64,000 bases of DNA from Escherichia phage vB_EcoM_PTE-Eco15: sequence record PQ352352.2. One strand, written 5' to 3'. Shown here piece after piece: positions 2,867 to 3,229 of this stretch (positions within the stretch are counted from its first letter, which is position 1; every line of letters begins with the position of its first letter). The position numbers and the translations under genes were made by a program. The notes below the pieces were generated by a model, which was not told where the DNA came from, ran no database searches, and was given only the letters and a program-made list of their open reading frames with translations.

Positions 2867-3229
2867 ATGAAAGCATATCAAATTCTTGAAGGCACACATA
2901 AAGGTACTATTTATTTTGAAGATGGTATTCAAGCACGAATTATTGTCTCTAAAACCTTTAAAGAGGACTCTTTTGTAGACCCAGAAATTTTCTATGGTTT
3001 GCATGCCCGTGAAATTGAAATTGAGCCACAGCCTACAGTTAAAATTGAAGGTGGTCAACACCTGAACGTTAACGTTCTGCGTCGTGAAACTCTGGAAGAT
3101 GCAGTTAAGCATCCGGAAAAATATCCGCAGCTGACCATCCGTGTATCCGGTTATGCAGTTCGCTTTAACTCTCTGACTCCGGAACAGCAGCGCGACGTTA
3201 TCGCTCGTACCTTTACTGAGAGTTTGTAA
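2867..3229 (+). CDS. Autonomous glycyl-radical cofactor (GrcA/YfiD-like; T4 Y06I equivalent)
   Basis: C-terminal 60 aa ([59 protein letters not shown]) is the PFL/GrcA glycyl-radical domain; codon usage switches to host-like near 3050. Confidence 0.8.

Follow-up and report, generated by a model that had tools for sequence, protein, structure and literature searches.

A stretch of 64,000 nucleotides (nt) of Escherichia phage vB_EcoM_PTE-Eco15 (sequence record PQ352352.2; here called the window) carries, at 2867..3229, a small gene that changes character halfway along its length: the 5' half is AT-rich and phage-like, and the 3' half is nearly all identical to the grcA gene of Escherichia coli. 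How did a piece of the bacterial chromosome come to lie inside a gene of a T4-like phage? The initial annotation had proposed a chimera, made by recent capture from the host and supplying a spare radical domain to host pyruvate formate-lyase (PFL) or to the phage's own NrdD. We consider it very probable that the gene is the ortholog of T4 vs.6 (protein Y06I), a GrcA-type spare part, and that it has been patched by host grcA, recurrently across phages. The initial observation is thus borne out and its interpretation partly so: the recent host-derived tract, its boundary, and the connection with Y06I and PFL stand, whereas the fusion, the single capture, and the spare part for NrdD do not.

The host-identical tract of vs.6

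The window comes from a Tequatrovirus whose closest matches, slur03, slur14, and vB_Eco_EL, are 99.6-99.7% identical to it, and the copies of the open reading frame (ORF) 2867..3229 in these three phages are annotated as GrcA. The ORF lies between homologs of vs.7 and vs.5, as does vs.6 in T4 (NC_000866 63557..63919; NP_049730), which RefSeq also labels GrcA. The comparison with T4 Y06I suggested in the initial annotation identifies an ortholog of equal length that differs at 3 of 363 nt and in a single residue (residue 73, Arg in the window protein and His in T4), and the mosaic is likewise present in T4. The parts of the gene are as follows, with G+C content at third codon positions abbreviated GC3.

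2867..3229, plus strand: ortholog of vs.6 (Y06I), a GrcA-type autonomous glycyl-radical cofactor of 120 amino acids (from the ORF, synteny, and profile matches)
2858..2861, plus strand: Shine-Dalgarno sequence GAGG, 5 nt before the ATG start (read from the sequence)
2867..3044, plus strand: old, phage-type, AT-rich 5' part (GC3 0.20), a diverged homolog of the N-terminal half of GrcA (49% codon-aligned identity to E. coli grcA; hhalign)
3045..3219, plus strand: host-derived conversion tract encoding the glycyl-radical domain (175 nt identical to E. coli chromosomal grcA)
3149..3151, plus strand: GGT codon of Gly95 in RVSGYAV, the radical carrier, equivalent to GrcA Gly102 and PFL Gly734 (from translation and alignment to 6OWR/PFL; radical role from PMC8683613)
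3220..3229, plus strand: phage-type 3' end, GAG AGT TTG against GAA AGC CTG in E. coli (three synonymous differences; codon alignment)

The tract stands out by composition alone. In 90-nt windows, GC content is 0.24-0.37 over 2840-3019 and 0.44-0.52 over 3020-3229 and then returns to about 0.36, a step inside the gene from roughly 0.30 to 0.50. GC3 rises from 0.20 in the 5' half to 0.42 in the tract, the level of E. coli grcA (0.42-0.43). No other 173-nt stretch of the 64-kb window is richer in GC (0.497, against a mean of 0.343 with a standard deviation of 0.042; only 0.011% of windows attain this value).

Comparison with 5,426 complete E. coli genomes (blastn and megablast) identified the donor. 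By blastn, grcA was matched in 5,426 of 5,426 genomes, with 98.4% identity (182/185) over window positions 3045..3229, and the other E. coli matches were weaker (tdcE, 75.9%; pflB, 80%), so that of the two candidates named initially, grcA and pflB, it is grcA that fits. The 5' half had no blastn match in these genomes, and when the whole window was searched by megablast, the vs.6 tract was the sole match. Identity to E. coli grcA is uninterrupted for the 175 nt of 3045..3219, all three mismatches sit in the last three codons, and synonymous divergence (dS) between the tract and grcA is 0 over 43.3 synonymous sites, in agreement with the initial view that the 3' part is host derived and recent. 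The sharp boundary that had been placed near 3050 is also upheld: a maximum chi-square test places the breakpoint between 3044 and 3045, where identity goes from 74/151 positions on the 5' side to 179/182 on the 3' side (0 of 2,000 permutations were as extreme), and the rise in GC is confirmed. In the 60 nt past the vs.6 stop, 14/60 positions are identical to E. coli, i.e., there is no homology; in the one E. coli locus inspected, grcA lies between ung and eamB.

The gene is a stand-alone ORF of 120 codons with its own Shine-Dalgarno sequence and start, flanked by unrelated small genes, and is not the C terminus of a large glycyl radical enzyme. Its stop codon shares bases with the start of vs.5 (TAATG). 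The glycyl-radical domain is recognized by Pfam Gly_radical (PF01228; expect value [E] of 2.8e-18; residues 61-101), and the match to the GrcA structure in PDB entry 6OWR has an E of 8.6e-42, with a phmmer alignment that covers residues 22-120; by sequence, the solved GrcA and PFL structures span these same residues. The final 60 residues, from EGGQ onward, are identical to the C terminus of E. coli GrcA, and residues 58-120 align with the C terminus of PFL. A scan for promoters and terminators around vs.6 found sites no more numerous than in shuffled sequence. A minus-strand match of the terminator scan, the inverted repeat AGGTGGTCAACACCT at 3049..3063 (5 bp with a 5-nt loop), lies where the host-identical tract starts; this is probably fortuitous, because the repeat belongs to the conserved codons for EGGQHL and is not perfect in Klebsiella.

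What the composition leaves undecided is whether the two halves were joined or whether one gene was overwritten in part. A de novo chimera, in which illegitimate recombination fused an unrelated phage N-terminal segment to a captured 3' fragment of grcA or pflB in one recent event, would account for the sharp change of composition and identity at 3044/3045, and the 59-residue N-terminal half on its own indeed has no match in Pfam or NCBIfam. We nevertheless find a chimera unlikely. In the N-terminal half, an hhalign comparison of phage Vs.6 with bacterial GrcA spans all 60 columns (probability of 96.95%; E of 1.3e-10; 28% identity), and the uncultured phages L022 and L026 resemble sequence intermediates. 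Furthermore, full-length orthologs with a phage-type 3' half occupy the same syntenic place in other T4-like genera (Karamvirus, RB43-like, and other T4-like phages), and vs.6 was reported as conserved in six of six T4-like genomes (PMC1524935). The last three codons and the sequence downstream are phage type, so both tract ends lie inside homologous sequence, and pflB, at only 80%, is a poor donor. Both ends fall within the sole island of similarity at a level that permits pairing, which argues for gene conversion or a double crossover rather than illegitimate capture. Of the initial proposal of a phage-type 5' half joined to a host module, the host tract and the sharp boundary are retained; the 5' half is not foreign to GrcA, and the last three codons do not belong to the host. 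On this sequence evidence, vs.6 is best read as a pre-existing grcA homolog over its whole length that was patched internally by homologous recombination, not built by fusion.

The tract across phages and hosts

The E. coli-type tract is also found in Mosigvirus (O157 typing phage 6, JS09, and SF) and in Carettavirus (phiE142). In the comparison of the window with Mosigvirus, the tract departs from everything around it:

vs.7: identity 0.66; dS against JS09 1.26
vs.6, 5' half: identity 0.88; dS against JS09 0.55
vs.6, tract: identity 0.97-0.99; dS against JS09 0.05
vs.5: identity 0.71; dS against JS09 2.7
regB: identity 0.72

Among 15 sequences, the 177-nt 5' half has 13 fixed differences that separate Tequatrovirus from Mosigvirus/Carettavirus, and the 173-nt tract has none (Fisher P = 2e-4); of the 13 polymorphisms in the tract, 9 are singletons. 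At synonymous positions the two groups differ by 0.347 in the 5' half and by 0.061 in the tract, the latter being the level seen within groups. The E. coli tract is by these comparisons younger than the split between Tequatrovirus and Mosigvirus/Carettavirus, because it has no fixed differences and a low dS amid a diverged 5' half and diverged flanks. Across the phage collection, the E. coli allele is matched to within 5% by 642 records and to within 1% by 293 of these; 2 records lie at 90-95%, and the 107 at 80-90% are Klebsiella phages.

Those Klebsiella phages carry a tract of their own. In Jiaodavirus, which infects Klebsiella, the 5' half of vs.6 is 72% identical to that of the window, GC steps from 0.36-0.37 to 0.57-0.59, and the 3' part encodes the Klebsiella-type residues LLDAVEH. 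The Jiaodavirus tracts (about 162 nt) have 2-9 differences from grcA of the Klebsiella pneumoniae complex, whose alleles themselves differ at 2-9 positions, 14-21 from that of other Klebsiella and Raoultella, and 17-24 from that of E. coli. A search with K. pneumoniae grcA matched 106 Klebsiella-phage records at 95-99% over grcA nt 202-369/374 and E. coli phages at 80-90%; a Klebsiella sp. metagenome-assembled genome from outside the K. pneumoniae complex gave only 80-95% to the phage collection. The donor can be resolved below the level of the complex. The tract of KPV15 differs from K. pneumoniae at 2/162 positions, with an exact run of 140 nt, and has the K. pneumoniae state at 7/7 sites that separate K. 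pneumoniae from a K. variicola-like allele; that of K5 is nearest the K. variicola-like allele (4/162) and has its state at 5/7. The end points vary as well: the tract of Nispero reaches two codons further 3', and the 5' edge in KPV15 reads GTT, not ATT. These differences in donor alleles and end points point to several independent conversions within Jiaodavirus, as far as sequences can tell. The phage collection was also searched with Salmonella and Citrobacter grcA, and neither allele was found; the best matches, at 83.8% and 92.3%, were E. coli-type tracts. In place of the single capture envisaged initially, we thus see a tract homogenized across phage genera and a second one gained independently by Klebsiella phages from Klebsiella.

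KPV15 (NC_055715) has its vs.6 split into two coding sequences (1322-1471 and 1528-1683) by a frameshift in the 5' half, and yet no other tract comes as near to that of K. pneumoniae; the split is either a sequencing error or the mark of a recently inactivated gene.

Some Tequatroviruses come from hosts other than E. coli. The tracts of Hafnia phage IsaacDaniel, Proteus phage Isf-Pm2, and Citrobacter phage CrRp10 are 98-99% identical to the E. coli allele, and the tract may reflect the usual host more than the isolation host. Yersinia phages PYPS2T and fPS-2 and "Pseudomonas" phage PsgM02F have an E. coli-type vs.6, present among the matches listed as the whole gene or the 5' half only.

This distribution bears on a second alternative, one ancient capture in the ancestor of the Tevenvirinae, frozen ever since by selection strong enough to act on codons too. 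The domain protein is extremely conserved across phage and bacterial copies, and Tequatrovirus, Mosigvirus, and Jiaodavirus share the 5' boundary, as such a capture would predict. It is nonetheless extremely unlikely, since a frozen segment should not be host specific, and host-specific tracts are what phages of different hosts have: those of Jiaodavirus are 2-9 differences from the K. pneumoniae complex and 17-24 from E. coli. Nor would it explain why RB16 and RB43 are identical to E. coli at only 150-152/183 nt, why Karamvirus has no host-like tract, or why tract dS between genera is 0.05 against 0.55-2.7 in neighboring sequence.

Convergence on the host's codons, or chance, would make the identity a product of protein conservation and host tRNA preference; the domain is in fact under strong purifying selection (dN of about 0). 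What makes this barely credible is the behavior of the same protein elsewhere. All 43 synonymous sites are identical between the window and E. coli, whereas enterobacterial genera with an identical GrcA C-terminal protein and similar codon bias share only 159-170/183 nt with E. coli (13-24 differences; 87-93%), and between E. coli and Citrobacter, K. pneumoniae, and Salmonella, dS of the grcA tract is 0.38, 0.60, and 1.13, respectively. The identity therefore exceeds what protein conservation gives, and GC is not uniform along the gene; the initial annotation had named the opposite of both together as the outcome that would speak against host capture. Phages tell the same story. Against a host reference of about 80 sampled Enterobacterales and Pasteurellaceae grcA genes, T5-like, RB43/RB16, KP15, CC31/PG7, and jumbo phages with the same or nearly the same domain are identical at 116-154/183 nt to any sampled host (129-154/183 for the T4-like lineages with a phage-type 3' half, CC31, PG7, RB43, RB16, and KP15), and the longest exact run in each is 8-35 nt, compared with 175 nt in the window. 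In 80 phage GrcA loci from IMG/VR compared with these host genes, no host-identical tract was present in T5-like, RB43/RB16, KP15, CC31/PG7, jumbo, Aeromonas, or Morganella phages; one patch in the uncultured phage L024 is the exception.

In L024 (IMG/VR 3300008607_000007), 77 nt at about 1797-1873, in the last 186 nt of its ORF 1492-1893, form a patch in which only 2 positions mismatch Haemophilus grcA. In five sister phages, the same 77 nt have 8-16 mismatches, and the rest of the domain is alike in all, with 23-25 mismatches per 96 nt. The patch may represent a third case of host conversion, of shorter length, in a Pasteurellaceae phage. A 116-kb record, EC.W14-2, was suspected of being a T5-like phage with a 100% tract; it proved to be a Tequatrovirus record of reduced length and was rejected.

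The C-terminal protein variant is exactly E. coli type in RB16 and Klebsiella type in KP15; RB43 is E. coli type except for N101->A and L120->M. DNA identity of RB16, RB43, KP15, and their relatives to those hosts is only 80-83%. Host-type residues without DNA identity could be left from older conversions whose synonymous sites have since diverged, or could have arisen by convergence on the host. The variants in RB16/RB43 and KP15, which amount to two residues, hint at selection for a match to the host.

As for the reverse direction, in which E. coli would have taken the segment from a phage, exchange both ways has been reported for cyanophage psbA (PMC1484495), and nothing of the kind is specific to vs.6. 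We regard it as scarcely tenable, and the transfer is from host to phage, because the composition of the tract is that of the host (its GC3 of 0.42 matches the remainder of E. coli grcA, and the phage half has 0.20), every one of the 5,426 E. coli genomes has grcA, divergence of the host tracts follows taxonomy, and the phage tracts nest in host groups. An assembly artefact, with host reads producing a hybrid consensus (phage preparations do commonly contain host DNA), is a negligible prospect given 642 independently sequenced records with the mosaic, several T4 records among them, along with private phage mutations, constant phage-type flanks, and Klebsiella-specific versions.

Role of the Vs.6 protein

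The gene and its biochemical function were already known. According to PMC8683613, T4 Y06I, once activated by PFL activase, restores PFL that oxygen has cleaved at Gly734 (Wagner 2001), E. coli GrcA has been shown to do the same, and no more than two "spare part" proteins, Y06I among them, have been validated by experiment. The suggestion in the initial annotation that host PFL damaged by oxygen is rescued thus corresponds to an experimentally shown function of Y06I, on that source's account of Wagner 2001. Since the function is known, nothing about the role of the protein is new here, and the analysis adds its evolution.

The window gene shares with T4 vs.6 its position between vs.7 and vs.5 and its length, and the protein shares its last 60 residues with E. 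coli GrcA (YfiD; 6OWR). Unlike bacterial GrcA, it is 7 residues shorter, and its N-terminal 60 residues are only about 28% identical. The GrcA-like genes of T5-like, RB43-like, Karamvirus, and jumbo phages encode the same small protein with the conserved domain, but they do so without the host-identical tract.

The other role put forward initially, that of replacing the radical domain of the phage-encoded NrdD, with activation by NrdG, is very unlikely. Both partners are encoded in the window as claimed (nrdD at 22353..24170 and nrdG at 24167..24637, about 19 kb downstream of vs.6), and an early speculation assigned the protein a role in nucleotide metabolism (PMC1524935). However, BLASTP of Vs.6 against the NrdD of the window found no significant similarity (best E of 3.7), the domain is the PFL-type one of GrcA residue for residue, including the last 60 residues of the E. 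coli protein, and PFL rescue is the only activity that PMC8683613 gives as demonstrated for Y06I.

Beside nrdD, between the endonuclease VII gene (21071..21544) and nrdD itself, lies a plus-strand ORF of 273 codons with a NUMOD3 motif (21541..22362) that looks like an inserted homing endonuclease. At the start of the window, the genes on the plus strand are arranged as follows:

1..156, plus strand: C-terminal end of e
138..434, plus strand: ORF of 98 amino acids, an internal head protein by the slur14 annotation
482..907, plus strand: denV
914..1174, plus strand: ORF of 86 amino acids
1238..1816, plus strand: IPIII-like gene

In T4 the order is e, ipIII, ipII, denV, and the internal-protein genes are thus arranged otherwise in the window.

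Probable recombination with the host chromosome

Judging from the experiments with T4 Y06I, the host activase PflA would place a glycyl radical on Gly95 of Vs.6, and the activated protein would dock on host PFL whose radical domain oxygen has cut off, so that activity returns. Anaerobic or microaerobic energy metabolism could then continue in the infected cell. The phage presumably needs a copy of its own since host gene expression would be shut off after infection. The simplest account of the patch is that the phage gene was converted by, or underwent a double crossover with, the grcA on the chromosome of the cell it had entered, an exchange probably carried out by the phage's own homologous recombination acting on fragments of the host chromosome. 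Exchange would be confined to the one island similar enough to pair, with identity of about 49% upstream and unrelated sequence past the stop. Once a tract was installed, its perfect homology should greatly ease later conversions and would lead to concerted evolution with the grcA of the current host.

From here it is a short step to the idea that vs.6 is a standing "homology trap" whose 3' 170 nt are overwritten repeatedly by the grcA of the current enterobacterial host. We put this forward tentatively and rate it somewhat below an even prospect.

Several observations weigh against recurrent patching or narrow what it can mean. Within Tequatrovirus, synonymous diversity is 0.031 in the tract and 0.091 in the 5' half, a gap too small to require ongoing conversion. 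E. coli could have donated the shared tract to each genus independently, or one phage could have passed it to another during co-infection, and the data fit both. The Jiaodavirus tracts match no sampled host allele exactly (2-9 differences, with six K. pneumoniae-complex sequences sampled). RB43/RB16 and RB49-like phages infect E. coli yet have no E. coli-identical tract; conversion is therefore not inevitable, and the case of RB43/RB16 implies that its first, homeologous step seldom happens. Because T4 breaks down host DNA and has modified cytosines, recombination could occur at a very low rate. As to the identity of the protein, TIGR04365 aligns with residues 20-120 at a score of 153.3 bits and does not reach the NCBIfam equivalog cut-off of 170, because the N-terminal half is divergent. 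Finally, the case for exchange between T-even phages and the bacterial chromosome is made here by comparing sequences.

A precedent for such copying exists in the laboratory. T4 recombines with cloned homologous DNA in the infected cell, as in plasmid marker rescue and genome editing with donor plasmids. Short homologous, unmodified DNA is copied there as it would be here, but the donors are multicopy laboratory plasmids, whereas in vs.6 the donor would be a single-copy chromosome in nature.

The closest natural parallel is the cyanophage psbA/psbD system (Zeidner 2005; Sullivan 2006, PMC1484495), in which a host metabolic gene in T4-like phages likewise shows patchy G+C, supported breakpoints, and segments that cluster with the host. 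The pattern in vs.6 is of the psbA type: the tract groups with host alleles (0 differences from E. coli and 13-24 from other genera), and the 5' half follows the phage genera. It departs from psbA/psbD in that the donor is identifiable to species and identical at every site, with a clear direction; in that the patch boundaries are constant in hundreds of genomes and different phage genera have tracts that match the genus each infects; and in that the phages concerned are T-even phages of enterobacteria, which contain hydroxymethylcytosine and degrade host DNA. We found no description of the vs.6 mosaic in the literature searched, and an earlier mention, for example in a T4 genome review, is possible. 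What is new is the host-identical, host-tracking conversion tract, a clean example of a known process.

The textbook lytic phage T4 thus carries 175 nt that are base for base those of the E. coli chromosome, and in the 64 kb analyzed here this is the sole such stretch. As a natural case of host-to-phage gene conversion it is clean, with donor, direction, and boundaries all identifiable, and it occurs in phages that destroy host DNA and distinguish it chemically from their own. Host-identical DNA in a lytic phage is accordingly not necessarily an artefact, which calls for caution in host prediction and contamination filters. The tract offers a simple, testable system for recombination between phage and chromosome and possibly a marker of a phage's recent host. 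If the homology trap is real, this segment evolves with the host and not with the phage, it records the recent host at the level of species or allele, and the spare part stays matched to the PFL and activase of that host. It would then show directly, from nature, that phages recombine with the chromosome at an evolutionarily relevant rate even though they are strictly lytic, degrade host DNA, and carry modified cytosines.

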